DNA of 64,000 nt. It comes from a virus. The notes under the pieces are model-generated. The model saw nothing but the letters and a program-made list of their open reading frames with translations. It had not been told where the DNA came from and made no database searches. The DNA is taken from the IMG/VR virus record IMGVR_UViG_3300045988_092126. One strand, given 5' to 3'. A program made the translations under genes and the position numbers. The first letter of the stretch is position 1. Each line of letters starts with the position of its first letter. Shown here piece after piece: positions 11,747-54,149 of this stretch.

Positions 11747-11867
11747 TAAAAAGGAGTTAGGTTCCCGACTACCAATCAAAAAAAACCTAACTCCAACACC
11801 ACAAAGGGTACAGTATTATTATAACATGGTACTCTCCCTTTGTGAACCCAAAAGGAGGGTATTTTTT

Positions 11868-16778: not shown

Positions 16779-19700
16779 ATGCCTGACAACACAATAGATA
16801 GCCTTGCGATAGAGGTCAGCAGTAACGTATCAAATGCAAGTAAATCCATTGATGATTTATGCAATAAACTGAATCGTCTGAGTAGCCGTATGTCTGAGAG
16901 TATCAAGCATCTTAGAGACTTTTCAGCTTCCGTAGGTACGGTCAATTCTGCTGTTCAAGCACTTAAATTAGACAGGCTTGATTTATCAACGATAAACAGT
17001 CAATTGCAACAGTTTGTTCAGTCTATGAGTGCGCTCGGTAGCCTGAACTTGAGAAACAACGGATTAAACTCATTCGTAAATGCAATCCGCAGACTGAACG
17101 AAACATTAAACTCCACAGGTGATGTGTCTGGAAAGATTCAGAACATGATTTCCGAATTATCTGGTCTTAGCAGTATTCCAGACGTATCAAACAACGTGAA
17201 CCGGTTTGTTTCTTCATTGGCAAGATTGGCGAATGCAGGTGGCTCTATTGATGCAGTTACATCAAAACTTCCAAATCTTGGTGAAGAACTCAGAAAAATC
17301 ATAGTTTCGTTCTCTGGAATAGGTAATATCTCTCAACCAATTAATACATTTGTTCAGTCAATTTCACAGTTGGCAAATGCAGGAGATAAAACTGGAAAGA
17401 CTGCAACTCAGCTTAATGATTTGGCTAATAGCTTAAAATTATTCTTTCAGACAATGAGTACTGCTCCAAGAATTAGTAACAGCACAATTCAAATGACACA
17501 GGCTATTGCTCAATTGGCAAACTCTGGGGCAAATGCTGGTAGGGCGGCAAGGTTTACTGCGAGTGCTTTTTCCAGACTGGGACAGGGTGCGGCTGCTTCG
17601 ACGGGAAAAGTTAGAAGACTCGGTAATGCCGTTGGAAATGTAGGAAGTAAAGCTAAAAAAAGCTTACCTAGCATTATGTCCTTGGTTGCGAAGTTCTGGA
17701 CGTTGAAATTTGTTGTTGGAAAATTCGGTAGCGCAATTGAAAGTTCCATGAACTTCCTCGAAGATTATAACTACTTTCAAGCGGCGTTCCGTCAGGTAGC
17801 AGATAAAGCAGGAAAAACTTGGTCGGAAGCAGGGTATGACTCCGCAGAAGCATACGCAGATTCATTCAGCCAGAGAGCCAGAGAACTTACATCTAAAATG
17901 TCTGGATTTGATGTTTCTGACAATGCGATTCTGACCTCAAATAAAACCGGTAAGTCACTTGGTATGGACCCGTCCATGCTTTTAAATTATCAAGGCCAGT
18001 TTGCACAGTTATCATCATCTATGGGAACGACTTCTGAACAGGCTTTAAAGCTGTCGAATGCGTTAACTATGATCGGCGCAGACCTTGCATCTGTTAAAAA
18101 TCTTGATTTTAAAACAGTTTACGAAAACTTATCCTCTGGATTAGTAGGAATGAGCCGTGCTGTAGATAAATATGGCGCGAATATTCGTGTGGCAAACTTA
18201 CAGCAATACGCTTCGAATCTCGGACTGCAAACAGCTGTATCAAAGATGGACCAGGCAAGCAAAGCAATGCTGAGGACAATAGTGATACTGGATTCTACAC
18301 GGTACGCATGGGCGGATATGGCAAATACGATAAATATGCCAGCCAACCAGTTACGTATACTTCGTGCAAATTTAGTATCCTGCGCCAGAGCATTAGGGAA
18401 CATCTTTATGCCTGTAGTTGCGGCAGTGCTTCCATACATCAATGGTCTCGTAATCGCATTTCAAAGACTTTTGACATACATTGGTTCACTTCTTGGAGTT
18501 GATACCAAAATTGGAAATATGTTCGGTTCTATCGGTAGCGGAAGTGAAAATCTCTCAAACGCACTTGATACTATAGACGATTCTAGTCTTTCAGATGTTG
18601 ATGATACTACAAAAGATACCAGTGACAATCTGAAAAATGCGACTAAAAACGCAAAGAAGCTCAAACAGTTCCTTGCATCCTATGATGAATTAGAGGTTAT
18701 GAGCAAAGACGACAGTTCTCTGTCAAACCTTGCAAATTCTAAGATTAAAACGCCTGCTCTTGACACATCTGCCCTTGACGCAGGAATGCTCAATGATGCG
18801 TTGGATAAGCTTCTGAATGAATACCAGAAGAAATGGGATGCCGCCTACAACTCAATGGAAAATAAGGCCATGGCGTTCGCGAATAAGGTTACAGACACAT
18901 TTAAGAAACTTGCAAAAGCCGCAGAGCCTACTACAAAAGCTTTGAAAAATCTCTGGAATAACGGATTGAAACAGCTCAGAGACTTCACATGGACAGCATT
19001 AAAAGATTTCTGGGAACATTTTCTAAAACCACTTGGGAAATGGACATTAGGAGAAAAAGGATTACCACGATTAATCAATGCTTTTAACGATTTTCTTGTA
19101 AAAATTAACTGGGATAAAATCAATGCTTCCCTTGTGCAATTATGGGATGTATTAGAGCCATTCGCTGAGAATGTCGGAACAGGATTGCTTGATTTCTTTG
19201 ACGATTTCTTTGACAAGGCGGCAGACGGAGTGAACAAACTCCCTGATCTGATTGACAAGTTTAAAGAGTTTATCGCGGGATTCTCACCAAAGCAAGCACA
19301 ATCTATCGGTTATTTCCTCGGACAGCTTCTGACTGCATTTATGGCGTTCAAAGGACTTACATGGTTCGGGGGCATTTTCGGTAAAGATGGAGTGATAGGC
19401 AAAGGCATTACCATGTTAGCGGCACATCCATACGCTTCGATAGCGGCAGGGCTGGGACTTACCGTCGCCGCGCTTGATAAGTTTGGAGTGATTGATGTTG
19501 ATTGGGACGGATTATGGACAAGAATTGGAAATCTCAAAGACGTAATTGTGAATTTCATCAAAAATATTGATTGGGATTCATTGGTAAAAACAATCGGTGA
19601 TGTATGGGATGTATTTCAGCCGTTTGCTGAGGGATTCGCAGACGCATTTATAAATTTCTTTGACATAATGCTCAATGACATTGGAGCACCACTAATTAAT

Positions 19701-21755
19701 ACATTAGTAAAAGTACTGGATGCATTTGCAAAAGTGTTAGGAAAACTTTCTCCTGAGTCAATATCTGCAATAGGAAATGCGCTTGGAATTTTCTTCGCAG
19801 TAAAAGGAACTATTAAATTTTCGAAAAATATATGGAGTGTGGTTAGTTCAATTAGTGGACTACGAACGATATTCAACGGTCTTGGCTCTGTATTATCTAC
19901 AGCTAGTGGTGCGTTACAGACATTTTTTGGTTCTGGACTCGGTTCTACACTTGCGGCAGGATTCGCAGACAGTATGGTTGTCTTAGGCACTGCAATGGCG
20001 GGATTCAACCTTGGGAAATGGATAAGCGTTAATCTGTTCGGCGGCGAAGATAAAACCTTCGGGGAATTTTTGGAAGATAATGTATTCGGTTATCAAAAAG
20101 GGGATTTTACCGGAGCTATCAACGAATGGATGAAAGATATATTCGGAGTTGGAAATAAGCTTACAGAGGACGACTTAAAAGTATTCCAGGAATATGAAGA
20201 TGCCATTCTTAGTCTGGTTCACGCAAGCCAGATTTCGGGTGAACAAGCATATCCTTTATTAACATTCCTTTCTGAATTAAAAGACAATGGATATAGCACA
20301 GAACAGGCATTGCATGAACTTGAACTTAAACTCAATAATCTAGGGGTTTCATCAGAAGATTTTGAGAATGCGATAGCAGGAGTAAATAAACCGGTCAAAG
20401 ACCTTGGAGACACAGCGGAAGCATCCTCTAATCAGTTTTCAAATATGGCTGACCGGATTAACAATGTTTCATTTGAGGATATCTCAGAACAGCTTACGGG
20501 ATTCCAGACACTTATCCAGACCGTTGACTTTGCGACTCTGGTAACAGATACAGCAAATGCAATTGATGAAATGGGCGGCATCTGGGAAAACGGAAAACAG
20601 ATTCTCGGCGAAAAAGCATTGCAGATTTATCAAGAAATCGCAAAGGGATTAGAGCCAGACGACAACGGTTACTATACTTTAGCAAACGGTCAGATGGTGC
20701 AGTTCGGGAAAGGTATTTCTGACTATGAAAGCACTCTACAAAGTACAATGGATTCAACTCTGCAAGGAGCAATCAACGGTGTTCTGGACAACAACTCCGG
20801 GTTTGAATTACTTGCAGAACTTGGAAAAAATCAAATTGTGGCATGTGGTGATGGAATTACTCAGAATGGTGGTCAGCTTACCAGCAAGCTAAACGAAACC
20901 ATTACAACCGCAAGTTTAGAAGCAGGAAGTACAGCAAAAACCAGTGGAAAAGAAATAGGTGAAAATTCTGTAAAGGGAGTTATGCTGGGATACGAAAGTC
21001 AAAAAGATGCACTTGGTGTTGCAACTCAAAGCTTGTTTGATGATTATGTCAAGAAGAAAGCGCAAGAGTCTCTTGAATCTCATTCTCCGTCCAGATGGTT
21101 CAAGCAGCTTGCAGAATATTGCGGTCAAGGATTCCAAAACGGATTAGAGCCGGGCTTTTCCTCGTCATTTACATGGTTTGGAAGAATCCGAACCAGAATC
21201 AGCAGTTCTATTGGAAACTTATATAATATCGGCTGGAACTCTATTATCGGTTTGAATAACGGAATCGTAGGCGCGGCACAACAGCTTTATGCGAATGTGC
21301 AAAAAATCGCTCAAAACATATCAAATACGTTCCGCAGAGTCCTTAAGATTCACAGTCCATCACAGGTAATGATGGAACTCGGTGGATTCACCGTTGAGGG
21401 ATTCCAGCTCGGTATGCAAAATATGCTTCCAAAAGTCGAATCAACCATCAATGACATAAGCGCAGAAGTGCAAAAGATTAACACGCCATCCGCAGACATT
21501 ATTACAAAGAGTACATCCTATCAGGAAGTAAAAAGCAGAATGTCTGTTGATACAGATGATTTTGTGGACGACATTCGGAAAGAAGTCATGGCAATCAGCA
21601 GTAACACGTTTGACAATAACCAGATGATCGGGCAGGCGGTCAAAAACGCTCTGAACGGCATGGCAATCTATGCAGACGGACATCTGATTGGATATCTGAA
21701 AGAAGAAAATCAGCAGTTCAGAAATCGTAATGGATACGGAATATTTGAAGGGTAG
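16779..21755 (+). CDS. tail tape measure protein
   Basis: 1658 aa with Ala/Ser/Leu/Asn-rich helical repeats and internal hydrophobic Gly-rich segments. Position after the chaperone pair. Confidence 0.9.
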   Translation: MPDNTIDSLAIEVSSNVSNASKSIDDLCNKLNRLSSRMSESIKHLRDFSASVGTVNSAVQALKLDRLDLSTINSQLQQFVQSMSALGSLNLRNNGLNSFVNAIRRLNETLNSTGDVSGKIQNMISELSGLSSIPDVSNNVNRFVSSLARLANAGGSIDAVTSKLPNLGEELRKIIVSFSGIGNISQPINTFVQSISQLANAGDKTGKTATQLNDLANSLKLFFQTMSTAPRISNSTIQMTQAIAQLANSGANAGRAARFTASAFSRLGQGAAASTGKVRRLGNAVGNVGSKAKKSLPSIMSLVAKFWTLKFVVGKFGSAIESSMNFLEDYNYFQAAFRQVADKAGKTWSEAGYDSAEAYADSFSQRARELTSKMSGFDVSDNAILTSNKTGKSLGMDPSMLLNYQGQFAQLSSSMGTTSEQALKLSNALTMIGADLASVKNLDFKTVYENLSSGLVGMSRAVDKYGANIRVANLQQYASNLGLQTAVSKMDQASKAMLRTIVILDSTRYAWADMANTINMPANQLRILRANLVSCARALGNIFMPVVAAVLPYINGLVIAFQRLLTYIGSLLGVDTKIGNMFGSIGSGSENLSNALDTIDDSSLSDVDDTTKDTSDNLKNATKNAKKLKQFLASYDELEVMSKDDSSLSNLANSKIKTPALDTSALDAGMLNDALDKLLNEYQKKWDAAYNSMENKAMAFANKVTDTFKKLAKAAEPTTKALKNLWNNGLKQLRDFTWTALKDFWEHFLKPLGKWTLGEKGLPRLINAFNDFLVKINWDKINASLVQLWDVLEPFAENVGTGLLDFFDDFFDKAADGVNKLPDLIDKFKEFIAGFSPKQAQSIGYFLGQLLTAFMAFKGLTWFGGIFGKDGVIGKGITMLAAHPYASIAAGLGLTVAALDKFGVIDVDWDGLWTRIGNLKDVIVNFIKNIDWDSLVKTIGDVWDVFQPFAEGFADAFINFFDIMLNDIGAPLINTLVKVLDAFAKVLGKLSPESISAIGNALGIFFAVKGTIKFSKNIWSVVSSISGLRTIFNGLGSVLSTASGALQTFFGSGLGSTLAAGFADSMVVLGTAMAGFNLGKWISVNLFGGEDKTFGEFLEDNVFGYQKGDFTGAINEWMKDIFGVGNKLTEDDLKVFQEYEDAILSLVHASQISGEQAYPLLTFLSELKDNGYSTEQALHELELKLNNLGVSSEDFENAIAGVNKPVKDLGDTAEASSNQFSNMADRINNVSFEDISEQLTGFQTLIQTVDFATLVTDTANAIDEMGGIWENGKQILGEKALQIYQEIAKGLEPDDNGYYTLANGQMVQFGKGISDYESTLQSTMDSTLQGAINGVLDNNSGFELLAELGKNQIVACGDGITQNGGQLTSKLNETITTASLEAGSTAKTSGKEIGENSVKGVMLGYESQKDALGVATQSLFDDYVKKKAQESLESHSPSRWFKQLAEYCGQGFQNGLEPGFSSSFTWFGRIRTRISSSIGNLYNIGWNSIIGLNNGIVGAAQQLYANVQKIAQNISNTFRRVLKIHSPSQVMMELGGFTVEGFQLGMQNMLPKVESTINDISAEVQKINTPSADIITKSTSYQEVKSRMSVDTDDFVDDIRKEVMAISSNTFDNNQMIGQAVKNALNGMAIYADGHLIGYLKEENQQFRNRNGYGIFEG

Positions 21756-22189: not shown

Positions 22190-22251
22190 CAACCAGAGTG
22201 CATGGGTGCCACAGCTCATGTGCTCTTTATTTTATATATGGGAGGACAGAT

Positions 22252-25200
22252 ATGGCAACATACACGTTTGAATCATTACTAAATAAAGCGGATGGGATGA
22301 CTAAAGTCAATGAATATGTTGTGCAGGAAAAGACTTTGGAAATAGAAGGAGCGTCTTGGTATCATTACGCCGGAAATGCTGTGAATAAACTTTATATAAA
22401 CGGTAAAGGATATATTGGATTCGGGGCAGATGTGGAACACTTAAAGATGTTCTGGGCTAAAGCGGCGAACAACATAAATGACGTATATAGGCAAGAAGGA
22501 GTTCTTGACACAGGAGCTAAATTCCTGAAATTGAAGTTAAAAGGAATATATAATCATTATTATGACAAATACGCATATGAATACGAAGTTTTTCTATTTG
22601 ATGACGGGAATATATTTGTATATATAATTAAAAGTGCGAAGAATGAATACAATACGCTATTTGGAGATTGTGAAGTCACAAATGGAAAGACCACAGATAT
22701 TGTGTTAGCAGAATACCATAGCGATTTTAAAAAATATCCTATCAGTAGACTTATTAGCAATGCTGGAATAAAGCCAAAAGTAATCCGCTCGAAATACACA
22801 CCGATAAAAGAAGCAGGGGTAAGAATTAAGACAAACCCTGCAGCAGTATACGTCCCAAACGCATTAGATTGGTCGGAATTGTCGGTAGAATCCTATGACT
22901 CATCAGGAAACACGAATGCAGTAAGTAATTTTACATTTCCCGATGTTGATGTATCTACAGTTGGAACAAAAACTGTAAAATTATCATATAAAACTTATAG
23001 CGTGCCTGTTGAAATCACTGTAAAAGAGGATACAGTCTTAGAACTTACAAAGTTCAATCTTCGCGATCATTATCTTCTAAATGAAACACTAGAGATATAT
23101 TCCGTAACGGCAGTATGGGATAGTGGAAAGAATGAAACATTGACTTCTGGATTTGATGTTTCTGGATTTGACAGCGCTACTCCCGGCACAAAGGAACTGA
23201 CGATTTCATATAAAGGAGCAGCCACAACAAAAAGTATATATGTCGCAGCTACCGCTGCGTTAACCATTGATGGTGCCAAGACCGAATACTATATAGGTGA
23301 TGATTTTGAAAGTGCTAACGGCATTATTACATACGATGATGGAGAAGAAGAGAGTGTTTATGAATTAATATATTCTGGATTTGATAACACGATTGCCGGA
23401 GAACAGGTTATCACAGCGACTGTAAGAGGATTAAGCACCACATACACAGTACACGTATCCGATACGGTTACTGCAAATATTGGGGCAAATGTAGAAACAG
23501 ATGCCATAGCTTCGCTTAACCTGATTACTGGTCTATTAACGGTTTCGGGAACGGGCGATACAAAAGATATAGACACCCCAAGTTATTTTGGCGGTGGAAT
23601 TTTTGACGGAAAAGGAGATCACTCTAGTCAAGTCAAAAAAATCGTAGTCCAAGAAGGTATTACTGGATTAATTGGAGCTTGCTTTTATGGCATGTCAAAT
23701 GTTACAGAAGTGTCACTTCCATCTACATTAAAGACAATAGGGCAAAGCTGCTTTTCCGGTTGCTCACTAATTACAACATTATTACTTCCAGAGGGACTGG
23801 AAACATTGCAAGATGGATGCTTCTATAACTGTAGCGGATTGACAGAATTAACATTGCCATCGTCATTGAAAGAAATAACAGGAACCATAATCGACAATAA
23901 AAACGCAGTATTAACCATTCTGAGCAGAACTGTTCTGATTGGCGAATACTCGATTTATGTAAAGACAATTCGCGGATATATTGGTTCAACAGCAGAGACT
24001 TATGCAAATAGCAACAATATCCCATTTGAAGCAATTAATAATATTTTAAAGATTGAAATAGTCAACTATCCATCAAAAACTTATCATGTCGGAGAAACGA
24101 TCTCCAAAGCAGATTTAACTGTACAGATGACCCTTGAAGATGGAACTGTACAGGAAACAGATTTATATGAATTAAGCTATGATTTCAGTTCGACCGGGAC
24201 AAAAACTGTAACGGTATTTATAGGAGATAAAAGTGATACGTTCAACGTTGATGTAACAACGTATAAACTTTCTGAGGTCGTTAATACTTTAACCGGGATG
24301 CAACTAATAGAGAATTCCGGACGGGATGAAGGAACAGACATACTGGATGGCGTTAGCTGGTTTAGATTCAACAATGTAATCACAGATAAACTCTATGTTA
24401 ATGGAAACAACTGGATTGGATTTGGGGTATCTTCAGAGCAATTGAAAATTTGTAACCGCGATGGAGCTACGCATAATATTTACAGGATGGAAACTGAATT
24501 AGACGGAGGTATAAAACTTCTTAAAATCCGAGTAGAAGGATATACATATTTTGCAGCCTCTGAAGCGCACGAAAGTCAGATAAAATATGAATTATTCTTA
24601 TTTGACAATGGTGATATGTACCTGAACGTAATTCAGTCTCCTATAGATACAAGCATCTATGCCGGAATATCCAGCTTGACTAGCAATGGCAAGACTACAA
24701 ATTTGTCCTTGAATGGAGCTACGCCGGAAAGCCCAGTACAGGTGTCATTCATACACCAGGACGAATCTGGACTTGATTGGAATATTTCTTATAGGCCATA
24801 TAGTCTTGCAACACTTGTCGGAATCAAAGTAGCACAGTTGCCCGATAAAACTAGGTATATGGTTAATGAAACGTTTAAGTCTTCTGGGCTTATCGTTAAT
24901 GTTGTCTATGATGATGGTAGCTCAGGAGTAATCAAAAAATATGCCTTGTCATCCCCAGATATGACATCGTACGGTAGCAAAAGTATAACGGTGACATTTG
25001 AGAGTTTCACGACCACATTCGACATTATGGTTGTAGATGTAACTGGAATTGAAATAACAAGTCTACCAACAAAAACGCGATATTACGAAGATGACGAATT
25101 TTTAGCCAGTGGAATAATTGTGTCTCAGGTATATACGGATGGGATTAAAGAAGAAATTACGGGCTATTCTCTTTCGAGCCCAGATATGTCATCTGGTGGA

Positions 25201-27264
25201 GAGAAGACAATAACAGTAACTTACAATAAGTTTACGACAACATTTACAATCTCGGTAATTGGTATATCTGGGATAGAAGTCTCCAAAATGCCAACAAAGA
25301 CAGAATATTACACAGGTGACAGTCTCGATACGTCCGGTCTCGAAGTAATATCCAAATATACAGATGGAGCATCGAGGAAGTTGACAGATTATAGCGTATC
25401 AAAACTTGATAGTTCTTCTGCTGGCGAGAAAGAAATTTCCGTAACGTATAAAAATCATACATCCACATTCAAAGTGACTGTGTATGAACTAAAAGGAATC
25501 CGAATTTCACATTATCCAAACAAGATTTATTATAAAATCGGAGAAACGTTCGACCCATCAGGGTTAACTGTTGTGGAAGTAAGGCAGGACGGAACCGAGA
25601 AAGAAATTACAGATTATGATATTTCAGGCTTCGATAGTTTCACCGCAGGTTCTAAGACCATCACAGTTTCTTATAATGTCACAGACAACGGAGCTTCCAA
25701 ATTTGTTGGTTCTGACAGTTTTCAAATCAAAGTCACAAACGACGGGAAAAACCCATTTGATGATAGTTCAAGTGGCGGTTCTGGCGGCGGCTCTGGCGAA
25801 GTTGAAGAAGAAAAAACTGAACCAATCAATGTTACAGTACACTGGATTAATGGCGAATTTGCTGACCTTACAAATGAAAATATCGACCAGAATACGCTTA
25901 CTTTGCAGGAGTCTATTTGCTCTGAACAGTATTTCATTTTTGGCGGTTGTGTCTGCAATCAGATAACGTTTCAGGCTCACCACGACCAGTTTAACGGTAC
26001 CTCGGAAGAGTTTTATCCCTCTGGCAAAATCGAAGTTTACATCGAGAGAAAAGGAACAAAAATTAAAATTTTCACAGGTGAAATCGACAGTGCAGAGCGA
26101 AAAGCAAACTCCCTGACACGTAATTTTATCGCGTATGATTATCTGTATAAATTACGAAATACTGACATTGCTCGATGGTATAAAAACCAGACGACTGATA
26201 AGAAGAAAAAGCTGACTCAAAAGCAATTTAGAGATAAATTATTTGAGTTTTTGGGACTCGAACAAGTTAGTACAAAACTGCATTGGGACGACACTTATGT
26301 GCCCGATACGAATAACTCAAATGAGATGAACGTAGTGAATATTCTGAAAGATTTATGCTTGCAAAATGACCGCTTTGGATGGATGAATAGGGATGGTAAA
26401 TTTGAGTATTTGAAGCTTCGCCAGAACAGCTATAAATACGGGCAGACCACCGGTAATCAGAACATTTATAAATACTACAACAATGAGGAAGTGCATCTTG
26501 ATACATTCAAAAGTTTTACCGCAAAAGAGGGTAGAATTTGGTTCCCGAATGTTATATTTTGTGACCCCGACCCGAATAGAGCCTTTGGATTTATACAAGG
26601 TGACTACACAGCGCAGGAAGCATATGATAACAATGTTTATTACAACAGAAATAGTTTCTTTGTCGGGAATGAAGATTGGCTGAATTACGTTTGGGATGCC
26701 AACGAATACGGCGGTATTTCAAGAGCTGAGCCGATTATGAAAATTTGCTATGGCGTGTTCGTAAATCAAGATTTGCGGAAATATTATCGTGCGCAGGGAT
26801 ATACCGCCGAGGTTCAGGGAAACCCACTGAACATGGTTGGACAGGCAGTCGAACTTTACTATAAAAAGCAGATTCAGCACGACGATCAGGAGCCTACAGA
26901 ACTGCAATGGTACGTCCATTCATACATCATGAGCAGGACGCTCAAAATCGGCGCTACAGACATGATTGACACCTATTCTGCCAACAATGCACCGTTTAAT
27001 AGTAATAGTCAGCAGTTAGGAAAATACACTCCTGAGATATCCGCAACCGTAAACCGCACCCGATCAGAAATGCCAGTAGTGAGCTATGGATTCTCAGACG
27101 GTACGAGCGATTTTACCCCGGCTGCTGTTTCTACTTCTGGAGGCACTATAAAAAAGACGGCATTACGTTGCATGAAGCGCATCAAAAAAGACGATTACGA
27201 TAACCTTCCCGCAGCAGCTCGTACTAGGGGCGATACTATTTTCATGACATATAAGGAGAACTAA
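22252..27264 (+). CDS. giant tail-tip protein: duplicated N-terminal domain, 8 Big_3-type Ig-like repeats, BspA-type LRRs, Gly linker, Tal-like C-terminal region
   Basis: Start at ATG 22252 (GGGAGGA RBS). Ig-like repeats follow the pattern P.KT.Y..GE.....GL.V...Y.DG....IT.Y......S.G.K.ITV.Y; four tandem copies lie at about 24820-25735. LRRs at about 23630-23900 (VSLPSTLKTIGQSCFSGCSLITTLLLPEGLETLQDGCFYNCSGLTELTLPSSLKEI). Linker SSSGGSGGGSG at about 25765-25800. Confidence 0.75.
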   Translation: MATYTFESLLNKADGMTKVNEYVVQEKTLEIEGASWYHYAGNAVNKLYINGKGYIGFGADVEHLKMFWAKAANNINDVYRQEGVLDTGAKFLKLKLKGIYNHYYDKYAYEYEVFLFDDGNIFVYIIKSAKNEYNTLFGDCEVTNGKTTDIVLAEYHSDFKKYPISRLISNAGIKPKVIRSKYTPIKEAGVRIKTNPAAVYVPNALDWSELSVESYDSSGNTNAVSNFTFPDVDVSTVGTKTVKLSYKTYSVPVEITVKEDTVLELTKFNLRDHYLLNETLEIYSVTAVWDSGKNETLTSGFDVSGFDSATPGTKELTISYKGAATTKSIYVAATAALTIDGAKTEYYIGDDFESANGIITYDDGEEESVYELIYSGFDNTIAGEQVITATVRGLSTTYTVHVSDTVTANIGANVETDAIASLNLITGLLTVSGTGDTKDIDTPSYFGGGIFDGKGDHSSQVKKIVVQEGITGLIGACFYGMSNVTEVSLPSTLKTIGQSCFSGCSLITTLLLPEGLETLQDGCFYNCSGLTELTLPSSLKEITGTIIDNKNAVLTILSRTVLIGEYSIYVKTIRGYIGSTAETYANSNNIPFEAINNILKIEIVNYPSKTYHVGETISKADLTVQMTLEDGTVQETDLYELSYDFSSTGTKTVTVFIGDKSDTFNVDVTTYKLSEVVNTLTGMQLIENSGRDEGTDILDGVSWFRFNNVITDKLYVNGNNWIGFGVSSEQLKICNRDGATHNIYRMETELDGGIKLLKIRVEGYTYFAASEAHESQIKYELFLFDNGDMYLNVIQSPIDTSIYAGISSLTSNGKTTNLSLNGATPESPVQVSFIHQDESGLDWNISYRPYSLATLVGIKVAQLPDKTRYMVNETFKSSGLIVNVVYDDGSSGVIKKYALSSPDMTSYGSKSITVTFESFTTTFDIMVVDVTGIEITSLPTKTRYYEDDEFLASGIIVSQVYTDGIKEEITGYSLSSPDMSSGGEKTITVTYNKFTTTFTISVIGISGIEVSKMPTKTEYYTGDSLDTSGLEVISKYTDGASRKLTDYSVSKLDSSSAGEKEISVTYKNHTSTFKVTVYELKGIRISHYPNKIYYKIGETFDPSGLTVVEVRQDGTEKEITDYDISGFDSFTAGSKTITVSYNVTDNGASKFVGSDSFQIKVTNDGKNPFDDSSSGGSGGGSGEVEEEKTEPINVTVHWINGEFADLTNENIDQNTLTLQESICSEQYFIFGGCVCNQITFQAHHDQFNGTSEEFYPSGKIEVYIERKGTKIKIFTGEIDSAERKANSLTRNFIAYDYLYKLRNTDIARWYKNQTTDKKKKLTQKQFRDKLFEFLGLEQVSTKLHWDDTYVPDTNNSNEMNVVNILKDLCLQNDRFGWMNRDGKFEYLKLRQNSYKYGQTTGNQNIYKYYNNEEVHLDTFKSFTAKEGRIWFPNVIFCDPDPNRAFGFIQGDYTAQEAYDNNVYYNRNSFFVGNEDWLNYVWDANEYGGISRAEPIMKICYGVFVNQDLRKYYRAQGYTAEVQGNPLNMVGQAVELYYKKQIQHDDQEPTELQWYVHSYIMSRTLKIGATDMIDTYSANNAPFNSNSQQLGKYTPEISATVNRTRSEMPVVSYGFSDGTSDFTPAAVSTSGGTIKKTALRCMKRIKKDDYDNLPAAARTRGDTIFMTYKEN

Positions 27265-36644: not shown

Positions 36645-38672
36645 ATGAAAAAAATCGAAGTAAGAGAGATTAGATTGACCGACTTTAAAGGTCAGTCGGA
36701 AAAGAAAATAGAGTTTGGACACAGAACAGTCGTTTCCGGGAAGAACGGATGCGGGAAAACCACACTGGCAGATGCGTTTATGTGGGTATTCTGCGACAAG
36801 GATTACAGTTTAAAGAGCAACCCGGATATCAGACCTGATGATGGTAGAGAATGTCTACCAAGAGTCGATATTGACCTTGTAATTGATGGAAAGTCAGTAA
36901 GCGTAGCGAAATTCCAGAAGCGCACAGAAAGTAAAACAAAGGACGGGAAGCCGGGCAAGGTTGCATTATCCAACAAATACGAAATCAACGGTGTTCCGAA
37001 AGCTGAAAGAGATTTTAAAGTTGATTTAAAAGAGCGAGGATTTGACTTTGATAATTTTCTTATGCTGTCGCATATGGAAATCTTCACAGACTTAAAAGAT
37101 GCAGATGCCAGAAAAATTCTGTTTTCCATGTCAGACGGTGCCGGAAAATCAGATTTAGAGATTGCCAAGACAGTTTCAGATTGTGCCGAGTTGGTACCGC
37201 TTCTGGAAACCTACAAGGCAGACGAAATCAAAGCCATGAACAGCGCGACACTGAAAAAAGCAGAGGAACAGTTGAAAGCTATTCCAAACCAGATTATCGG
37301 CATGGAAAATTCAAAAGTTGATGCTGATGTTGCGGAACTGGAATTGCAGAAGAACGCCTTGCAGGAACAGATTTCTGACCTTGAAAAGCAGATTGCACAG
37401 GCAGGAAACGAGCGAATCAGAAAGCTCAGAGCGGAACTTTCGGACTTAGGCGTTCGGAAATATTCTTTCGAGTCAAAAGCATATGAAGAAGTCTCAACGA
37501 GAAAAACTGCAATTCAAATTAAAATCAATGAGTTGCAGTCAGAAAGGAATCTGAAAACAGCCGAATTAAACAGAAAGACTTCTGCTTTGGAGAGTTTGAG
37601 ATCGCAGAAGAAAGAGTTGCTCGAAAAATTACAGAACGCTAGAACACAATATCCCAAAATCAAGGATGCAGAATGGGACAACACAGTTCTGGAAAATATT
37701 GAATCTGAGACATTCAAGGATGCAGAGACTATTTGCCCGACTTGCGGTCAGAATCTTCCATCAGAGCAGATTGAGCAGTTAAAGAGCAGATTCGAGCAGA
37801 AGAAGCAGGAAAGAATCAATCAGCAGTTAAAAGCTAAGGAAGAATGGGAACAGGACAAGAAGCGTAAACTTGATGAAGTTATTCAGGCTGGTAATAAAGC
37901 GTCTGCCGGAATGAAAGAAGCGCATAAGCAGGAAGAAGCTCTCACATCTGAAATTTCTAAACTAACAGATGAATTAGAGCAGATCAAAACTTCGTTGGAT
38001 GCAGAAAACAAGAATATGGAAGCTATACCAGAAAAGCCAGACTTCTCAGGGAATGCCGAATATCAGCAGATTCTTACATCAATCAAAGAGAAAGAGCAGG
38101 AGATTAATTCTCTGGACGATGGCGAAGAAGCAAAGAAGCAGCTTTCAGAACAGTTATCCGGCAAGAAACAGGAATTGGCAGCAGTTAATCAGAGAATCGG
38201 AGAAGCCAACAACAACGTCCGAATTGACGAACAGATCGAGAAGCTTCAGGAAAGCCAGAAACAGTACGCGCAGAGCAAGGCTGACGCACAGATGATTCTG
38301 GACGAACTGAAATCCCTGAGCATGGCGAAGAATACAGCCATTGAAGATGCAGTAAACCAGTATTTTAACGGAGTTAAAGTGAAGCTGTTTGATACACAGA
38401 AGAACGGCGAAGTCGTAGATGCTTGCATCTGGTACGTACAGGACAAGTACGGTAACTGGAAGAAATTAATTGGAAACGCCAATACAGCCCTTATGATGAA
38501 AGGAAAAATTGCCATCATGGACGGCTTACAGAAATTTTACGGCGTGAGTTATCCGATATTCGTAGACTGCGCAACAGAACTGGACAACAGCAGTCTGGCA
38601 AGTATTAAGGCAGACGCGCAGTTGATATTCTTGAAAGTTGCCGAGGGGGATATGACAGTAACGGAAGTTTAA
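36645..38672 (+). CDS. SMC/Rad50/SbcC-like ATPase with long coiled coil and CxxC hook
   Basis: 675 aa. Walker A VSGKNGCGKTT at the N-terminus, about 350 aa of heptad repeats with a central ICPTCGQ, and a C-terminal Walker-B-like PIFVDCATELD. Confidence 0.75.
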   Translation: MKKIEVREIRLTDFKGQSEKKIEFGHRTVVSGKNGCGKTTLADAFMWVFCDKDYSLKSNPDIRPDDGRECLPRVDIDLVIDGKSVSVAKFQKRTESKTKDGKPGKVALSNKYEINGVPKAERDFKVDLKERGFDFDNFLMLSHMEIFTDLKDADARKILFSMSDGAGKSDLEIAKTVSDCAELVPLLETYKADEIKAMNSATLKKAEEQLKAIPNQIIGMENSKVDADVAELELQKNALQEQISDLEKQIAQAGNERIRKLRAELSDLGVRKYSFESKAYEEVSTRKTAIQIKINELQSERNLKTAELNRKTSALESLRSQKKELLEKLQNARTQYPKIKDAEWDNTVLENIESETFKDAETICPTCGQNLPSEQIEQLKSRFEQKKQERINQQLKAKEEWEQDKKRKLDEVIQAGNKASAGMKEAHKQEEALTSEISKLTDELEQIKTSLDAENKNMEAIPEKPDFSGNAEYQQILTSIKEKEQEINSLDDGEEAKKQLSEQLSGKKQELAAVNQRIGEANNNVRIDEQIEKLQESQKQYAQSKADAQMILDELKSLSMAKNTAIEDAVNQYFNGVKVKLFDTQKNGEVVDACIWYVQDKYGNWKKLIGNANTALMMKGKIAIMDGLQKFYGVSYPIFVDCATELDNSSLASIKADAQLIFLKVAEGDMTVTEV

Positions 38673-38697
38673 TAATTAATAGAAAAGGAGAATTGTT

Positions 38698-39645
38698 ATG
38701 GCAAGCAAAACACAGTTAGCAACAGCAGGAGAACAACAGGCAGCAGTCGTAATCAATAATTCATTCATTGATGGTCTGACTAAACAACTTGAAGAAAAAT
38801 GCAAATATGGTCTTTCTTTTCCAAAAGACTATAATCTCAGCAATGCACTTATGGGAGCATATCTGGTTTTGAAAGAAACAAAAGATAGAAACAATAAACC
38901 AGTTTTGGAATCTTGCACATCTACTAGCATAGCAAACAGTCTTATGAATATGGCAACCCTTGGTTTGTCAGTTCAGAAAAAACAGGGTTATTTTATCGCT
39001 TACGGCGGTCAATGCCAGTTCCAGAGGTCGTATTTCGGAAATATCACAATCGCCAGAAGGTATGGAATGAAAGATATCCATGCCGAGATCATCTATGATG
39101 GTGACAAGTTCAAGTACCACATTGAAGATGGGGATAAAGTTCTTGATATTCACGAGCAGGACTTTATGAATATCGACAATGATAAAATTCTTGGGGCTTA
39201 TGCAGTCGTTCAGATGGAAGACGGAACGAAGCATCTGGAAGTAATGAATATCAAGCAGATTAAGCAGGCTTGGAAACAGGGATTCGGATTCAAAGAAGAC
39301 GGAAATGGAACACATCAGAAATTTACTGACCAGATGGCAAAGAAAACCGTTATCAATCGCGCATTGAAACAGATCATTAATAGCCACGGAGATATTTTTA
39401 CGCAGGAAGCCGAAGAATTTACAGAAGAAATCCAAAAACAGGACATCATCGAACATGAAGTTGCTTATGAAGTCGAGCAGAACGCCAATGCAGAAGAATT
39501 TATCCCAGACGAGCCAGTAGCAATCGAAGAACAGCCTAAACAGCCAACGGTCGCAGAAGTCGTAAAGACTTCCGAGAAAGAACCGGTTCCGGCAGCAGGA
39601 CAGGAATCAAGTATTCCAGATTTTATGAAGCAGGAGGAAATGTAG
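38698..39645 (+). CDS. recT: RecT-family single-strand annealing protein
   Basis: 315 aa. ...SIANSLMNMATLGLSVQKKQGYFIAYGGQCQFQRSYFG... and the KKTVINRALKQI motif are typical of RecT/Bet. Acidic C-terminal tail. Confidence 0.8.
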   Translation: MASKTQLATAGEQQAAVVINNSFIDGLTKQLEEKCKYGLSFPKDYNLSNALMGAYLVLKETKDRNNKPVLESCTSTSIANSLMNMATLGLSVQKKQGYFIAYGGQCQFQRSYFGNITIARRYGMKDIHAEIIYDGDKFKYHIEDGDKVLDIHEQDFMNIDNDKILGAYAVVQMEDGTKHLEVMNIKQIKQAWKQGFGFKEDGNGTHQKFTDQMAKKTVINRALKQIINSHGDIFTQEAEEFTEEIQKQDIIEHEVAYEVEQNANAEEFIPDEPVAIEEQPKQPTVAEVVKTSEKEPVPAAGQESSIPDFMKQEEM

Positions 39646-40557: not shown

Positions 40558-41178
40558 ATGAGCCATAGCAGTTTATATGGAATTGATAGGGATTACAAAG
40601 GAAAGGTTATTAAAGAGTTCAAAAATTTATGGCTGTTCGCACCTGCTATATGGGATGTTTTGACAGAAAAATATATTCCACTACGCAAATTGATAAGCCA
40701 TGGATTTAAGAGAAATATCATTTTTGATGCTTCTCTTTGGCACGAAATAAGCAATGAAATCAATAATTGCGACAATACAGCAGACAGGATTTGCTGGGAA
40801 ATTTCTGTCGGGCATGTTTTCTTCACAAAAGATAAGAGCTGTGTGGCAAATGCAATAAGAGACTTTATTAAGCAAAATAATAATTATTGCAGAGACATTG
40901 AGGATAATGTCGCGGTGTTGGAAAGGGAGCACATCATTGAAAGATTCGAAGAGATTGCTAGTGAAATAGAACTGTTATCGGAAGATACACCGTATTTTGT
41001 AATGAAGAACACTTCTGTTGATGACAGCGTAGAAAGATGGTTTGAAAAATACGATGATAAGCAAGATGAATATATAGAAACTGGTCTTAATCAGGTTGAT
41101 GAATTTGTTACAGAATTTGTAGTGATCGAAGATGGAAAAATCGTGAATTTCATAAATAATTTGGAATTTGAATATTGA
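40558..41178 (+). CDS. hypothetical protein
   Basis: 206 aa, same strand, tightly packed. Confidence 0.4.
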   Translation: MSHSSLYGIDRDYKGKVIKEFKNLWLFAPAIWDVLTEKYIPLRKLISHGFKRNIIFDASLWHEISNEINNCDNTADRICWEISVGHVFFTKDKSCVANAIRDFIKQNNNYCRDIEDNVAVLEREHIIERFEEIASEIELLSEDTPYFVMKNTSVDDSVERWFEKYDDKQDEYIETGLNQVDEFVTEFVVIEDGKIVNFINNLEFEY

Positions 41179-41195
41179 AAGTGAGGTGATGAAAA

Positions 41196-41943
41196 ATGTT
41201 CATGAGAGTGATAAACACAGGCAGTCAACCGGGAAACTGCTATGCGCTTAAATCCGAATCCGGCGAAATCTTACTTTTGGATTGCGGATGTAGATACTCG
41301 GAAATTCTAAAAGGAATTTCTTATAGGATATCGGACGTTTTGGGGTGTTTAATAAGTCATGAACATGGTTGATTAAGGTGACCATAAGAAGTCGTACAAA
41401 GAAATATTGAACGCAGGCATTCAAATTTACACTAACGACGAGACAGTTGAGAGTGTAAACACAATCTCTGGTGAGCTGATGAGTGGCTTACCAGAAAAGA
41501 AACCAAAGGACATAGGTTCGTTCCGTGTAACACCGTTTTACGTCCCGCACGACAAGACACCAAACTTCGCGTACCTGATATCTCATGAAGAATGTGGACG
41601 ACTGATATATGCGACAGACTTCTCATATTTGCCGTTCACATTCAAGAACATGAGAATAAATCACTTCCTTATAGAATGCAATCATCTGGACGAATCACCG
41701 GAACAGGATTCGTTTAAGTTTGAGCACTCCGTCCGGGGGCACAGCAGCTTATCTACTGTAAAAGAGATTATTCGAGTGAACAAGACCGCTTCGCTCAGAA
41801 CCATAACGCTGTGTCACCTGTCAGAGGGATGGGGAAATCCGGAAGTGATGCAGAATGAGATACAGGACGTTGCCGGGGATGATGTTCTGGTGCAGATCGC
41901 AAGACCGGGACTGAATGTTGATTTGAATTTATGCCCGTTTTGA
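41196..41943 (+). pseudogene. MBL-fold metallo-hydrolase interrupted by 10 nt inside the HxHxDH motif
   Basis: 41196-41369 encodes ...LLDCG...LISHEHG, then TGA. 41380-41943 (+1 frame) continues DHKKSYKEILNAGIQIY...VPHD...H. Deleting 41370-41379 (TGATTAAGGT) restores HEHGDH. Confidence 0.75.
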
Positions 41944-41954
41944 AAGGAGAAAAA

Positions 41955-42521
41955 ATGGAAATTGATAAATCAAAATTAAAGTTGGGAATTTGGTATGAGG
42001 ATGAAAACGGAAATTTAATTAAGCCAGAAGATGATTTGGCGTGTGAAGCACCAGAAGGAGCGAGAACGTACCATTCCTGCTTTCCGTTACAAATAACAGA
42101 ACACGTTTATGTAGTGCATGGCAAAGCTGAGAAAGAAGCGTGCAAGCACAAACGGAAATATTGGAAAAAGGATACAGGTCTGATAAGGGGATTAAAAGGC
42201 CATATATGCACTAATTGTGGGTGTAGCCAAACAAGAAAGTGGTGGCAGCCATGGGGAAGAAAATGGGATTACGGAACGGATACCACACCACTTATTGACT
42301 TTCATACAAGTATTGGAGGTGGAAATCAAGATGTCATAATGGCAATGGTAAACAGCGGAGATTATACATTACAGGAAGCACTTGTTGTTTTTTCTACGGC
42401 CTGCGAAAGATGTATGAATGTGCTTGCATACAAGTATTTGAACGGAGCAGATGGGTACGAAGAATATTCAGATGAGTGGAAAAAATGCAATACTGAATGC
42501 GATTTTTGCAAGAATAGTTAA
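41955..42521 (+). CDS. hypothetical Cys-rich protein
   Basis: 188 aa from ATG 41955 (AAGGAGA RBS). CTNCGCS and CERC...CNTECDFC clusters. Confidence 0.4.
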   Translation: MEIDKSKLKLGIWYEDENGNLIKPEDDLACEAPEGARTYHSCFPLQITEHVYVVHGKAEKEACKHKRKYWKKDTGLIRGLKGHICTNCGCSQTRKWWQPWGRKWDYGTDTTPLIDFHTSIGGGNQDVIMAMVNSGDYTLQEALVVFSTACERCMNVLAYKYLNGADGYEEYSDEWKKCNTECDFCKNS

Positions 42522-42556: not shown

Positions 42557-42967
42557 ATGAAACAGTGGACAGAAGAAGAACTTATTAATGACGGAAACAG
42601 ATTAAGAAATGCTGAAATCACAAATGTATCATTAAATTTCAAAGATCACGGAGTACTTACCCTTGACCTCACTCTTTCTGGCGGTGGATGGGGAGTTGTA
42701 TTCGGAGGATATGTTTTAGGACATGGTTACCTTGGCTCGGAAAACTTTAAAGGTTCAAAGGCAGGGCTTGAAGTGATTATGAGAATCATGGACGTTGTTG
42801 GCGTAGATGACCTAATAGAAATGAAAGGAAAGCATGTCAGAGTTGCTATGAAAGGACTTGGACATTCAGTGAAAATTATCGGAAATTTCATTAAAGATGA
42901 ATGGTTTGATTATGAAAGCTTCTTCGAAGATGAGAAGCCACTTCCAGAACCATATAAGGGAAATTAA
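42557..42967 (+). CDS. hypothetical protein
   Basis: 136 aa with GGGAGGA RBS. The C-terminal ...PLPEPYKGN is shared at the DNA level with the gene ending at 46852. Confidence 0.4.
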   Translation: MKQWTEEELINDGNRLRNAEITNVSLNFKDHGVLTLDLTLSGGGWGVVFGGYVLGHGYLGSENFKGSKAGLEVIMRIMDVVGVDDLIEMKGKHVRVAMKGLGHSVKIIGNFIKDEWFDYESFFEDEKPLPEPYKGN

Positions 42968-42977
42968 AAAGCACCGA

Positions 42978-43130
42978 CTATTTATCGGCACTTTTTACAA
43001 AATCTTGGAGAATGGTAATAACCAGATTATTGAAACTTCTGTTCTCCTGCTTGGCAATCTGCTCAAGTTGTTCTTTAAGCTGTATCGGGAACGTGATATT
43101 AGTTCTGGTCTTATCAGAATTGCTAGCCAT
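42978..43130 (-). CDS. ribbon-helix-helix (CopG/Arc-like) regulator
   Basis: 50 aa from MASNSDKTRTNITFPIQLKEQLEQIAKQENRSFNNLVITILQDFV (beta-alpha-alpha pattern). GGGAGGG RBS. Confidence 0.6.
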   Translation of the reverse strand: MASNSDKTRTNITFPIQLKEQLEQIAKQENRSFNNLVITILQDFVKSADK

Positions 43131-43196
43131 ATGAAATCCCTCCCTTGTTTTTAGAACATTGTAGCATTTTTGTCTATCGGTGTCAATTAGATGCCA

Positions 43197-43277
43197 AAGT
43201 GATACCAAAGTGATACCATTTTATCTTGCAATATAGGTGTTGAAGTGGTATCATAGTGGTATCATAATGGTATCAAA
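43197..43277. repeat. five 11-bp GTGATACC/GGTATCAC-type repeats in a 2+3 inverted arrangement
   Basis: aaagtgatacc x2 (43197-43218), and gtggtatcata x2 plus atggtatcaaa (43245-43277), flanking a 26-bp AT-rich centre between divergent genes. Confidence 0.75.
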
Positions 43278-43290
43278 AATACACCAAAGA

Positions 43291-43917
43291 ATGAATCGAG
43301 GTGATAAGTTTTTGAATAACAACTATAAAAATTTTGTAAAAGCTAAGGCGATTGAAGCTGAGAATAAAAAAAGACTGTTGAAAATCAATCCGAGACTTGA
43401 CAATAAAAGCGGAATCTATTTTCTGACTAGAATTGATGAAAATGGAATCCAGTATTTTTATATCGGACAGGCAGTTCATATAATTCAGAGGATGTGCTCG
43501 CACCTCACAGGTTATCAACATATTGATCTGTCTATAAAAAAACGAGGTTTTTTCAGCATAGATAACCCGTATGGATGGATGATTAACTTTATACATTATC
43601 CAGCGGATAAGTTGGATGAAATGGAGCAGTTTTGGATTCTGGAATATACCAAAAAGGGGTATCAATGCAGGTACAACAAAACATCTGGTAGCCAAGGCGA
43701 AGGAAAGGAGAAGATAAATGAATTTAAGCCTGCTAAAGGCTATAGGGACGGCATACAGCAAGGCAAGAAAGCCCTCGCCAGAGAACTGTCGCATATCATA
43801 GATACGCACCTGCAAGTTTCTTTGAAGCCAGAGAAACAGAATAACAAAGTATCAATTCGGGCTTTTGAAAAATTCCAGAACTTGATTGATGAAAAAACAT
43901 ATGAAAAGGAATCGTGA
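43291..43917 (+). CDS. GIY-YIG nuclease-domain protein
   Basis: SGIYFLTRIDENGIQYFYIGQAVHIIQRMCSH (GIY...YIG...R) and E in WILEY. Start uncertain (ATG 43291 or TTG 43312). Confidence 0.6.
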   Translation: MNRGDKFLNNNYKNFVKAKAIEAENKKRLLKINPRLDNKSGIYFLTRIDENGIQYFYIGQAVHIIQRMCSHLTGYQHIDLSIKKRGFFSIDNPYGWMINFIHYPADKLDEMEQFWILEYTKKGYQCRYNKTSGSQGEGKEKINEFKPAKGYRDGIQQGKKALARELSHIIDTHLQVSLKPEKQNNKVSIRAFEKFQNLIDEKTYEKES

Positions 43918-52919: not shown

Positions 52920-54149
52920 ATGAATAATGACGACTTGAAATATGCTATAGAGAATGGTATTATCGACTTATCTCACATACAAGAAAACATAGAGATGAGC
53001 AAAAGAAGGGACATATTGGAACAATATGAAGCTAGTATTTGGGAGGCTTCGGACGGATATTGGAAAATCCGTATTTATGATGATGAAACTAAGAAAAGAA
53101 GACTGATTAAGAGGAGAAACAGGGAAGACCTGGAAGATGAAATAGTCAGAATCTATAAGGAAAAGATTGAGAATCCTAAAATAAGTGAAATCTTTGATGA
53201 ATGGCTTGAACGCCGTCAGGAACTGGGCAAGATATCAATGTCCACAAAGCAGAGATACCAACAGGTTTTTGACCGCCATTTCAAAGAATTTGGTACTGAA
53301 AGAATACGAGATGTTGACTCGGAGGATTTTAGTAGTTTCCTTGAAGAGCAGACGGGGAAATACAATCTGACAGCAAAGGGATTCTCAAACCTCAAGACAA
53401 TAGCCAGAGGCACATTGAAATGGGCGAAGAGAAAGAAACTGATAGATTGGAACGTGGAAGAGCTTTTTTATGATCTGGACGTGAGCGACCGTGAATTTAA
53501 GAAGAATGTTAAGGAAGAATTAGAAGAGGTATTCAGCGACGCCGAAATGAAAAGAATCGTTGATTATCTCAAAGACAATCTTGATATGGTAAATCTTGGA
53601 ATTCTGCTTATGTTTGTGACTGGAATAAGAGTCGGCGAATTAAGTTCGCTAAAGTGGGAAGACTGGGTTTATAGCAGCAACGTGGAAAGTCCAAGCATAT
53701 TAAAGATACGCCGTACGGAGACACGGTACACTGTTGATCATAATTTAGTTTTCGATGTGAAGAACTTTCCGAAATCGGAAGCAGGTGTGAGAAATATAGT
53801 AATTCCACGTGGATGTGTCTGGATTCTGCAAAGACTAAGATGCATGTCAGCATTCTACGAGTACATATTTTTCATGGATGGTCACAGGCTTAATACATCT
53901 GTATTTAGACGGCGACTATACAAGGCTTGCAAAGAAACAGGATGTGTTCAGAAATCACCGCACAAAATCAGAAAAACTTACTGTTCAATTCTTCTCGATC
54001 ACAGTATTGACAACCAGATGGTAATATCTCAGATGGGACATTCAAATATAAAATGTTCCGAGAATTTCTACCACAGAGACAGAAAAACACTTGCAAAAAA
54101 GCAGGAAATCATGGATAATATTCAGGAATTTTCGGTTATAGCAAAATAA
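52920..54149 (+). CDS. int: tyrosine integrase
   Basis: 409 aa. GIRVGELSSLKWED (Arg I), HKIRKTY (H-x-x-R), MGHSNIKCSENFYHRD (His plus catalytic Tyr). Followed by an att-like site. Confidence 0.85.
   Translation: MNNDDLKYAIENGIIDLSHIQENIEMSKRRDILEQYEASIWEASDGYWKIRIYDDETKKRRLIKRRNREDLEDEIVRIYKEKIENPKISEIFDEWLERRQELGKISMSTKQRYQQVFDRHFKEFGTERIRDVDSEDFSSFLEEQTGKYNLTAKGFSNLKTIARGTLKWAKRKKLIDWNVEELFYDLDVSDREFKKNVKEELEEVFSDAEMKRIVDYLKDNLDMVNLGILLMFVTGIRVGELSSLKWEDWVYSSNVESPSILKIRRTETRYTVDHNLVFDVKNFPKSEAGVRNIVIPRGCVWILQRLRCMSAFYEYIFFMDGHRLNTSVFRRRLYKACKETGCVQKSPHKIRKTYCSILLDHSIDNQMVISQMGHSNIKCSENFYHRDRKTLAKKQEIMDNIQEFSVIAK

Follow-up and report, generated by a model that had tools for sequence, protein, structure and literature searches.

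How might a phage gene still yield its enzyme when the codons for its catalytic motif are interrupted by a stop codon and a break in the reading frame? The question is raised by a 64,000-nucleotide stretch of viral DNA (IMG/VR record IMGVR_UViG_3300045988_092126; "the window" below means this whole stretch), in which a gene for a metallo-beta-lactamase (MBL)-fold hydrolase is divided by 10 nucleotides (nt) within the sequence encoding the HxHxDH motif. Comparison with relatives of this gene makes it very probable that the gap exists, that it is conserved and that it stems from a cassette linked to an endonuclease, and points, less firmly, to a conserved recoding site that is likely to be decoded by ribosome hopping. 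The 5' coding segment (41196-41369, plus strand) comprises 58 codons from the ATG at 41196, which lies 6 nt behind a Shine-Dalgarno (SD)-like GAGGTGA at 41183-41189, and encodes MFMRV...CLISHEHG, ending in the first half of HxHxDH. The 3' segment (41380-41943, plus strand), in the +1 frame, has 187 codons and a stop at 41941-43, encodes DHKKSYKEIL...CPF*, and begins with DH, the second half of the motif; its later His/Asp/His positions are presumably those in PHD, ATD and CHL, if the general MBL pattern is followed. Between the two lies the putatively untranslated coding gap TGATTAAGGT (41370-41379, plus strand). The glycine codon GGT at 41367-41369 (Gly58, plus strand), the proposed take-off codon, is followed directly by TGA at 41370-72, a zero-frame stop that would stand in the ribosomal A site at take-off, and the zero frame then continues with another TGA and a TAA. 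The gap also contains TAA at 41374-76, which would stop the +1 frame, as well as the candidate landing codon, a second GGT (41377-41379, plus strand), directly 5' of the resume codon GAC at 41380-82. The initial annotation of this DNA had described the two pieces, the identical GGT codons around the gap, the TGA directly behind the first of them and the TAA in a second frame, and each of these coordinates was borne out.

Excision of 41370-41379 yields a protein of 245 residues with HEHGDH, as had been claimed, and the spacing of HxHxDH is exact only after this excision. PHROG 392 ("metal-dependent hydrolase") aligns to residues 4-241 of the spliced protein, straight across the junction (E 7e-58), and Pfam Lactamase_B (PF00753) matches residues 12-142 with 28.2 bits against a cut-off of 22.7, again colinear through the junction. 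The segments 41196-41369 and 41380-41943 are two halves of one MBL-fold hydrolase of PHROG 392, and neither half has a second lesion, again in agreement with the annotation. A single-sequence AlphaFold model of the spliced protein was too poor for fold comparison (mean pLDDT 35), and phmmer found no match to the hydrolase in the PDB. The tryptic peptide predicted across the junction of the spliced product is ISDVLGCLISHEHGDHK.

The initial annotation also took the layout of the gap for a hallmark of hopping. The layout is indeed present, but it is not rare by itself, as a scan of the window returned 49 places where a sense codon is followed by a stop and then, within 12 nt, by a synonymous or nearly synonymous triplet, with long open reading frames (ORFs) on both sides. 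The site at 41367 stands out because homology extends through its junction and because of the comparison with relatives. The layout scan gave no other convincing hop site in the window; among the places returned by this chance-level scan, TAT TGAC GAC at 54681 (plus strand) and TTT T(stop) at 1591 (plus strand) resemble the Tyr- and Phe-type sites of relatives described below, with no sign of split genes.

The gap recurs in relatives. A protein-anchored search of viral contigs, unbiased as to the presence of a gap, gave 80 relatives and, with the window, 81 genes, 25 of which are gapped at exactly the same codon boundary (eight by 6 nt and 17 by 10 nt); all 25 splice to a clean ORF of 245 residues. 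The initial annotation had proposed looking for the gap in related phages, and this is the outcome of doing so. The 6-nt inserts read GGT-TAAGGC-GAC or GGT-TAAGGA-GAT, and the 10-nt inserts read GGT-TGATTAAGGT-GAC as in the window, or TAATTAAGG followed by C or A between the same two codons; TAATTAAGGC and TAATTAAGGA are sister variants of the window gap. These variants are linked by a TTAA duplication (from 6 to 10 nt) and by TAA>TGA and GGC>GGT changes, all of which retain the stop after GGT and a glycine triplet before GAC. The take-off codon is GGT in all 25 gapped alleles versus GGA or GGG in the intact alleles of this subfamily, which read HGHGDH where the window has HEHGDH, while the landing triplet is GGT, GGC or GGA, with its first two bases fixed and the third free. 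The identical TGATTAAGGT gap is present in six distinct sequence contexts, on contigs of IMG datasets 3300045988, 3300030381, 3300029540, 3300029679, 3300029560 and 3300029455, and related gaps were found in ENA and JGI assemblies, isolate genomes and one cultured phage. There is no near-identical annotated phage, the best DNA match having 67% identity over 23% of the query. An error of sequencing or assembly, or an indel that arose very recently and is private to this DNA, one of the mundane explanations that the annotation had put forward, is excluded for practical purposes by the recurrence of the same 10-nt gap in contigs from at least six datasets.

The other mundane explanation, a pseudogene, does not agree with the substitution pattern. 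Pairwise ratios of non-synonymous to synonymous divergence (dN/dS) within the window's subfamily, at a synonymous diversity of about 0.2-0.4, are 0.052 upstream and 0.088 downstream of the gap for intact alleles (n = 50), and 0.064 and 0.113 for gapped alleles (n = 23). Downstream of the gap, the polymorphisms that only gapped alleles have comprise 15 synonymous changes, 20 non-synonymous changes and no stops, compared with a neutral expectation of 22% synonymous (p = 0.004). Both halves are, as judged from these sequence comparisons, under purifying selection. Set against the 135 distinct complete gapped genes considered below, a second lesion occurs in one gapped allele only, L181, a viral contig with a TAAGGT gap whose downstream ORF ends after 41 codons (...KAVAEAFV*); this allele may be a genuine pseudogene, or the assembly may be at fault. 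The differences between gapped and intact alleles that go with the state of the gap are confined to a patch of about 60 nt (41345-41415, plus strand; nt 150-210 of the spliced coding sequence), and outside it the alleles are indistinguishable, which indicates that they recombine freely elsewhere in the gene.

Further loci were obtained by DNA-pattern scans, by searches anchored on the HNH protein introduced below, by a scan of bacterial genomes and by tblastn of annotated phages, and the classification of the sites was confirmed by blastp; among the matches listed, one subfamily contributed 424 relatives, and HNH loci numbered at least 348. The pattern scan of bacterial genomes gave mostly chance matches, with true MBL sites in 7 of 51. 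The loci obtained hold, taken together, 207 distinct complete genes, of which 72 are intact and 135 gapped, the latter comprising 29 variants of take-off codon and gap with lengths of 1, 2, 4, 5, 6, 7, 8, 10, 11 and 12 nt, in MBL proteins down to about 30% identity. A stop codon lies directly 3' of the take-off codon in every one of the 135, and all variants keep the DH codons in frame right after the gap. In 24 of the 29 variants, the amino acid of the take-off codon is encoded again by the triplet that precedes the resume codon GAY; these comprise glycine (GGT, GGC or GGA to GGN), leucine (CTC to CTA, CTT or CTG, and CTT to CTT), glutamine (CAA to CAG) and histidine (CAT to CAC or CAT, with the gap one codon earlier). 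In the remaining five it differs only at codon position 1 (CTT>TTT, TAT>GAC, GGT>AGC, CAT>TAC and CAC>TAC). Six amino acids (Gly, Leu, Gln, His, Tyr and Phe) are encoded by take-off codons at a homologous position. The CTT>TTT variant, CAU CUU UGA C, is present in five distinct relatives (L423, L424, L427, L429 and L446), and L404 has CAC UUU UGA C at the same MBL position, a +1 shifty stop of the release factor 2 (RF2) type outside prfB; in these six metagenome loci the site lies about 150-200 nt after an HNH stop codon. The cultured Cellulophaga phage phi18:3 (L315, NC_021794, 1501-2250) has CAC CAA-TGACAG-GAC CAT, a 6-nt in-frame stop-hop layout, and its hydrolase is annotated as two coding sequences, gp020 and gp019 (phi46:3 is likewise listed). 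Its relative phi19:3 (L316) is intact, with CAC CAA GAT CAT. Prophages of Faecalicatena contorta JCM 6483 and Lacrimispora xylanisolvens have GGT-TAGGC. Read from these layouts, one homologous position spans an apparent series from the classical +1 shift to a 12-nt hop, a continuum that the initial annotation had not foreseen. That annotation had reckoned with assorted, unrelated disruptions in homologs, such as decay would leave; instead a single class is found, at the same boundary, with an adjacent stop and a landing triplet that co-varies with the take-off codon. Its proposal of ribosome hopping from GGT to GGT over the stop is supported by the conserved site, the rules for stop and landing codons and the signs of selection.

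Other modes of decoding, such as readthrough or reassignment of the stop, a simple shift of frame by +1 or -1, slippage during transcription or editing, could be considered for some members of this series, since the 6- and 12-nt variants are in frame, with a readthrough product 2 or 4 residues longer, and the 1-nt variants are true +1 frameshift sites. The added residues would, however, land within HxHxDH. In the window, moreover, the stops in the zero frame and the change of frame mean that readthrough cannot restore the frame, the site reads GGT TGA T and is not a shifty stop of the prfB type, and a plain +1 shift at GGT_T would terminate at the TAA at 41374. There is no homopolymer run on which slippage could occur, and no tRNA gene was found in the window. 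These modes are therefore extremely unlikely to account for the window gene.

A split enzyme or a truncated product is another reading, in which translation ends at TGA 41370 and the 58-residue fragment is functional, either alone or together with a separately initiated C-terminal fragment. The stop is always present, many gaps contain an SD-like AAGG(A/T)G, and the T4 topoisomerase split by mobA still assembles (bioRxiv 10.1101/2022.08.31.505936). In the window, however, no start codon lies in frame close to the gap; the first is TTG at 41407, 9 codons beyond DH, so that neither fragment would contain the Asp and His of HxHxDH, and termination followed by reinitiation was ruled out on this ground. 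The landing triplets (GGN, CTN, CAG and CAY) are not start codons, and the DH codons stay in frame right after the gap whichever variant is considered. We regard a split or truncated hydrolase as very unlikely.

Where the gap may have come from is indicated by a second gene, which had no part in the initial annotation. Gapped loci of another subfamily have additional DNA, lacking in 80 intact loci, directly upstream of the hydrolase, and in some of them this DNA is an ORF of 191 residues that scores above the Pfam cut-offs for NUMOD4 and HNH_3. This combination is the architecture of free-standing phage homing endonucleases. The HNH gene ends in a stop codon that adjoins the start codon of the hydrolase or overlaps with it (TAAATG or TAATG). 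Homologs of full length (45-99% identity) are located directly upstream of gapped genes in many subfamilies, including the window's own, in which L077 and L080 (insert TAATTAAGGC) carry an adjoining HNH gene. Related phages of Lachnospiraceae, and more distantly other metagenomes, carry an HNH gene directly upstream of the MBL gene. After removal of duplicates, it is found there in 35 of 96 gapped loci and in none of the 110 that are intact (Fisher p = 4e-14), a count that is partly biased because 30 loci were obtained through the HNH protein. In these 30 viral loci every adjacent MBL site examined was gapped, and among 80 metagenome HNH loci most were gapped, five were intact and four had no readable site. 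Each HNH lineage keeps its own type of gap. In the F. contorta JCM 6483 prophage (L334, 718-1471, minus strand) the gene directly upstream of the gapped MBL gene encodes an HNH protein 74% identical to the reference HNH. The window copy has the gap-linked patch in common with the HNH-bearing L077 and L080 alleles, and its insert differs from theirs by TAA>TGA and GGC>GGT. In the L119 subfamily the patch is formed by 50 nt just 5' of the gap that are rich in synonymous changes, including a serine codon TCA versus AGC, which is what the recoding of an endonuclease recognition site would look like. A different ORF, of 354 residues and reverse-transcriptase-like by eye (...KCDIHKYFYSIDHEIMKDVL...), lies about 0.6-1.6 kb upstream of the gapped MBL gene in L139 and L146; it could belong to a retron or be a group II intron reverse transcriptase.

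These observations can be joined in a mechanism modelled on T4 mobA and gene 60. By this analogy, the NUMOD4/HNH_3 endonuclease would attack the conserved HxHxDH-encoding DNA of phages that lack the endonuclease, while its own genome would be protected by the insert of 1-12 nt and the recoded patch of about 50-60 nt at the same site. During translation of the gapped gene the x codon of HxHxDH (GGU in the window) would occupy the P site and the stop (UGA) the A site, where termination would be slow. The peptidyl-tRNA-Gly would then unpair from GGU 41367, the mRNA would slide by 10 nt, and the tRNA would re-pair at GGU 41377-79. Decoding would resume at GAC 41380, leaving the insert untranslated and giving the intact HEHGDH enzyme. 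The lineage of the window would have lost the endonuclease gene and kept the gap. We infer that the window gap is probably the orphan remnant of a cassette of the gene 60/mobA kind, and that the hydrolase is likely to be rescued by hopping.

A rather unlikely, purely selfish account would explain part of the same data. In this account the insert protects against the endonuclease or hitch-hikes with it, the hydrolase is dead, and homing and recombination keep moving the 60-nt patch and the gap into functional alleles. It would fit the narrow extent of the gap-linked divergence, with the rest of the gene recombining freely, the linkage of HNH to gapped alleles only, the slightly lower synonymous fraction of private polymorphisms in gapped alleles, and the second lesion of L181. 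However, it gives no reason for the stop after take-off in 135 of 135 genes, and it leaves unexplained the landing triplets that co-vary with the take-off codon for four amino acids, as well as the heptamer shared with prfB. In 61 of the 96 scorable gapped loci, including whole clades (those with the 6-nt gaps and with TGATTAAGGT), no HNH gene is adjacent and hence no drive is to be expected. Orphan gaps make up about 30% of the window's subfamily despite the strong constraint on it, the dN/dS of 0.09 in intact alleles indicating that the hydrolase gene matters, and drift inside the orphan gap has kept both the stop and the landing codon.

Several findings nevertheless weigh against hopping from an endonuclease-derived site, or lessen the force of the evidence for it. 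A profile search of all six frames (E <= 10) found no HNH relative in the window, where an unrelated ORF (40558-41178) precedes the hydrolase gene on its upstream side; the part of the mechanism that concerns the endonuclease thus rests on relatives, and the window copy is classed as an orphan remnant. Intact MBL genes lie beside distant HNH genes (47-51% identity) in L428, L436, L442, L444 and L447; they have sites such as CAT TCT CAT CTT GAT CAT, and may mean that these HNH proteins have another target, or that substitutions suffice for immunity. Some of the loci were drawn by DNA patterns that require GGT, a stop-like TR and GGN, and are biased accordingly, although the same rules hold in both the protein-anchored and the HNH-anchored sets, which are free of this bias. 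Many landing triplets match the anticodon at only two of three positions, GGU>GGA being the commonest variant. Private polymorphisms are 43% synonymous in gapped alleles versus 54% in equal-sized samples of intact alleles. Homing could also plant the gap into fresh functional alleles and so mimic purifying selection, and as recombination is free outside the patch, the constraint that is seen could in part derive from intact alleles. With regard to RNA structure, the initial annotation had counted a hairpin between ATGGTT and GACCAT among the hallmarks of hopping. Such pairing is possible (five Watson-Crick pairs and one G.U), but as a hallmark it fails: the local fold around the window gap is no better than those of shuffled sequences (z = 0.76; an equally good fold is reached by 161 of 200 shuffles), and other gap variants do not preserve the pairing. 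No downstream RNA sequence common to the subfamilies was found and no stimulatory element was seen, and the peptide ahead of take-off is the conserved (G/A)C(L/I)(L/I/V)(S/T)HEHG, which catalysis requires in any case. Finally, unassisted synthetic stop-hops in Escherichia coli reportedly reached only about 1% in the work of Weiss et al. in 1987.

The closest known system is the mobA/gene 60 cassette of T4 (Bonocora et al., 2011, as cited in bioRxiv 10.1101/2022.08.31.505936), in which an HNH endonuclease spreads together with a bypass insert that shields the carrier genome from nicking, with the diverged patch homR adjacent; some gene 60 relatives have lost the endonuclease and kept the bypass (bioRxiv 10.1101/2022.08.31.505936). 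The MBL site resembles it in having an insert, here predicted to be untranslated, within the conserved metal-binding part of an enzyme gene, in its matched glycine codons for take-off and landing with a stop directly after take-off, in the diverged patch beside the insert, comparable to homR, and in lineages that keep the gap without the endonuclease. It differs from gene 60 in its gaps of 1-12 nt rather than 50, in its many take-off codons (Gly, Leu, Gln, His, Tyr and Phe), in its hosts among Lachnospiraceae and Bacteroidota, and in its target, an MBL hydrolase rather than a topoisomerase. In contrast to gene 60, no take-off stem-loop was detected at the MBL site and no nascent-peptide signal is known for it. 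The NUMOD4/HNH_3 protein has about 190 residues compared with 269-279 for MobA, from which it is set apart here by architecture and length, and unlike mobA its gene precedes the target gene and does not split it.

Short gaps have been described in other settings. In Streptomyces phage phiHau3 the gene for the terminase has two 10-nt inserts after UUA, a candidate bypass whose junction peptide was shown by mass spectrometry in E. coli (PMC10732093), which indicates that 10-nt hops are feasible. Both there and at the MBL site a short (7-10 nt), frame-breaking insert stands in a conserved phage gene next to an A-site codon that is slow to decode; in phiHau3 the rare sense codon UUA acts as the trigger, and the proposed role is regulatory, whereas the trigger here would be a stop codon. 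The phiHau3 source mentions no endonuclease and concerns few genomes, in contrast to the linked endonuclease and the hundreds of genomes with the site in the MBL family. For prfB, which encodes RF2, a programmed +1 frameshift occurs at CUU UGA C (bioRxiv 10.64898/2026.01.08.698412). As in prfB, the peptidyl-tRNA would re-pair while a stop waits in the A site, and five relatives have the exact CUU UGA C. Unlike prfB, the window cannot use a +1 shift, there is no autoregulatory logic, and in relatives no SD-like element was seen over the three codons inspected 5' of their shift site. Synthetic stop-hops in E. coli are known from constructs only and no natural in-frame stop-hop is known, shorter counterparts of the bypass having been "long presumed" in a 2016 review of recoding (PMC5009743). 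The byps of Magnusiomyces capitatus mitochondria, where landing with two-out-of-three pairing is tolerated (PMC5009743), differ from the MBL sites in their use of an unassigned codon and of mitochondrial ribosomes. A survey from 2022 concluded that the gene 60 cassette "remains unique" (bioRxiv 10.1101/2022.08.31.505936), and our literature search found no prior description of this MBL site, which is not proof of absence. What appears to be new is an endonuclease-linked candidate bypass in which the target gene, the build of the endonuclease and the hosts are different, the gaps are very short and the take-off codons are many.

The surroundings of the window gene are those usual for the hydrolase family, with a recombination module upstream (36645-39645, plus strand) that consists of an SbcC-like ATPase (36645-38672) and RecT (38698-39645). 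The neighbouring genes at 41931-42521, 42557-42967, 42978-43208 (minus strand) and 43237-43917 were considered as a gap-linked element and rejected, as they are uncorrelated with the state of the gap. The last of these, on the plus strand, is an ORF of 226 residues (GIYFLTR...YFYIGQA) that belongs to PHROG 19106 (unknown function, E 6e-103) and has a weak Pfam GIY-YIG match below the cut-off (E 0.013), in gapped and intact relatives alike. Elsewhere on the plus strand of the window, two ORFs at 11826-12863 and 52920-54149 are tyrosine-integrase-like (PHROG 1, E 2e-60 and 2e-35), which fits a temperate phage, the presence of two copies in 64 kb being notable; ORFs of 1658 and 1688 residues lie back to back at 16779-21755 and 22198-27264.

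If the site is decoded as its layout rules imply, it would represent a second, independent and far more diverse endonuclease-bypass system beside gene 60. The site is common in human-gut phages, where one homologous position shows natural variants by the dozen, with gaps of 1-12 nt and take-off codons for six amino acids, and cultured carriers exist in Cellulophaga phage phi18:3 and F. contorta JCM 6483. Gapped MBL genes are currently annotated as two ORFs, as in phi18:3, or as pseudogenes, and the variants would offer a natural allelic series for the way in which take-off, sliding and landing scale with distance. In the family at large, the chances seem about even that natural sites at which a stop is followed by a hop or shift of 1-12 nt are decoded, efficiently enough to be of use, by the ordinary ribosomes of Lachnospiraceae and Bacteroidota, which would need no signal beyond a sense codon, an adjacent stop and a triplet for re-pairing, and that homing endonucleases have repeatedly exploited such sites to immunise their own genome while the target enzyme is kept. 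If this is true, the yield of the hop could set the dosage of the hydrolase or respond to release-factor activity.

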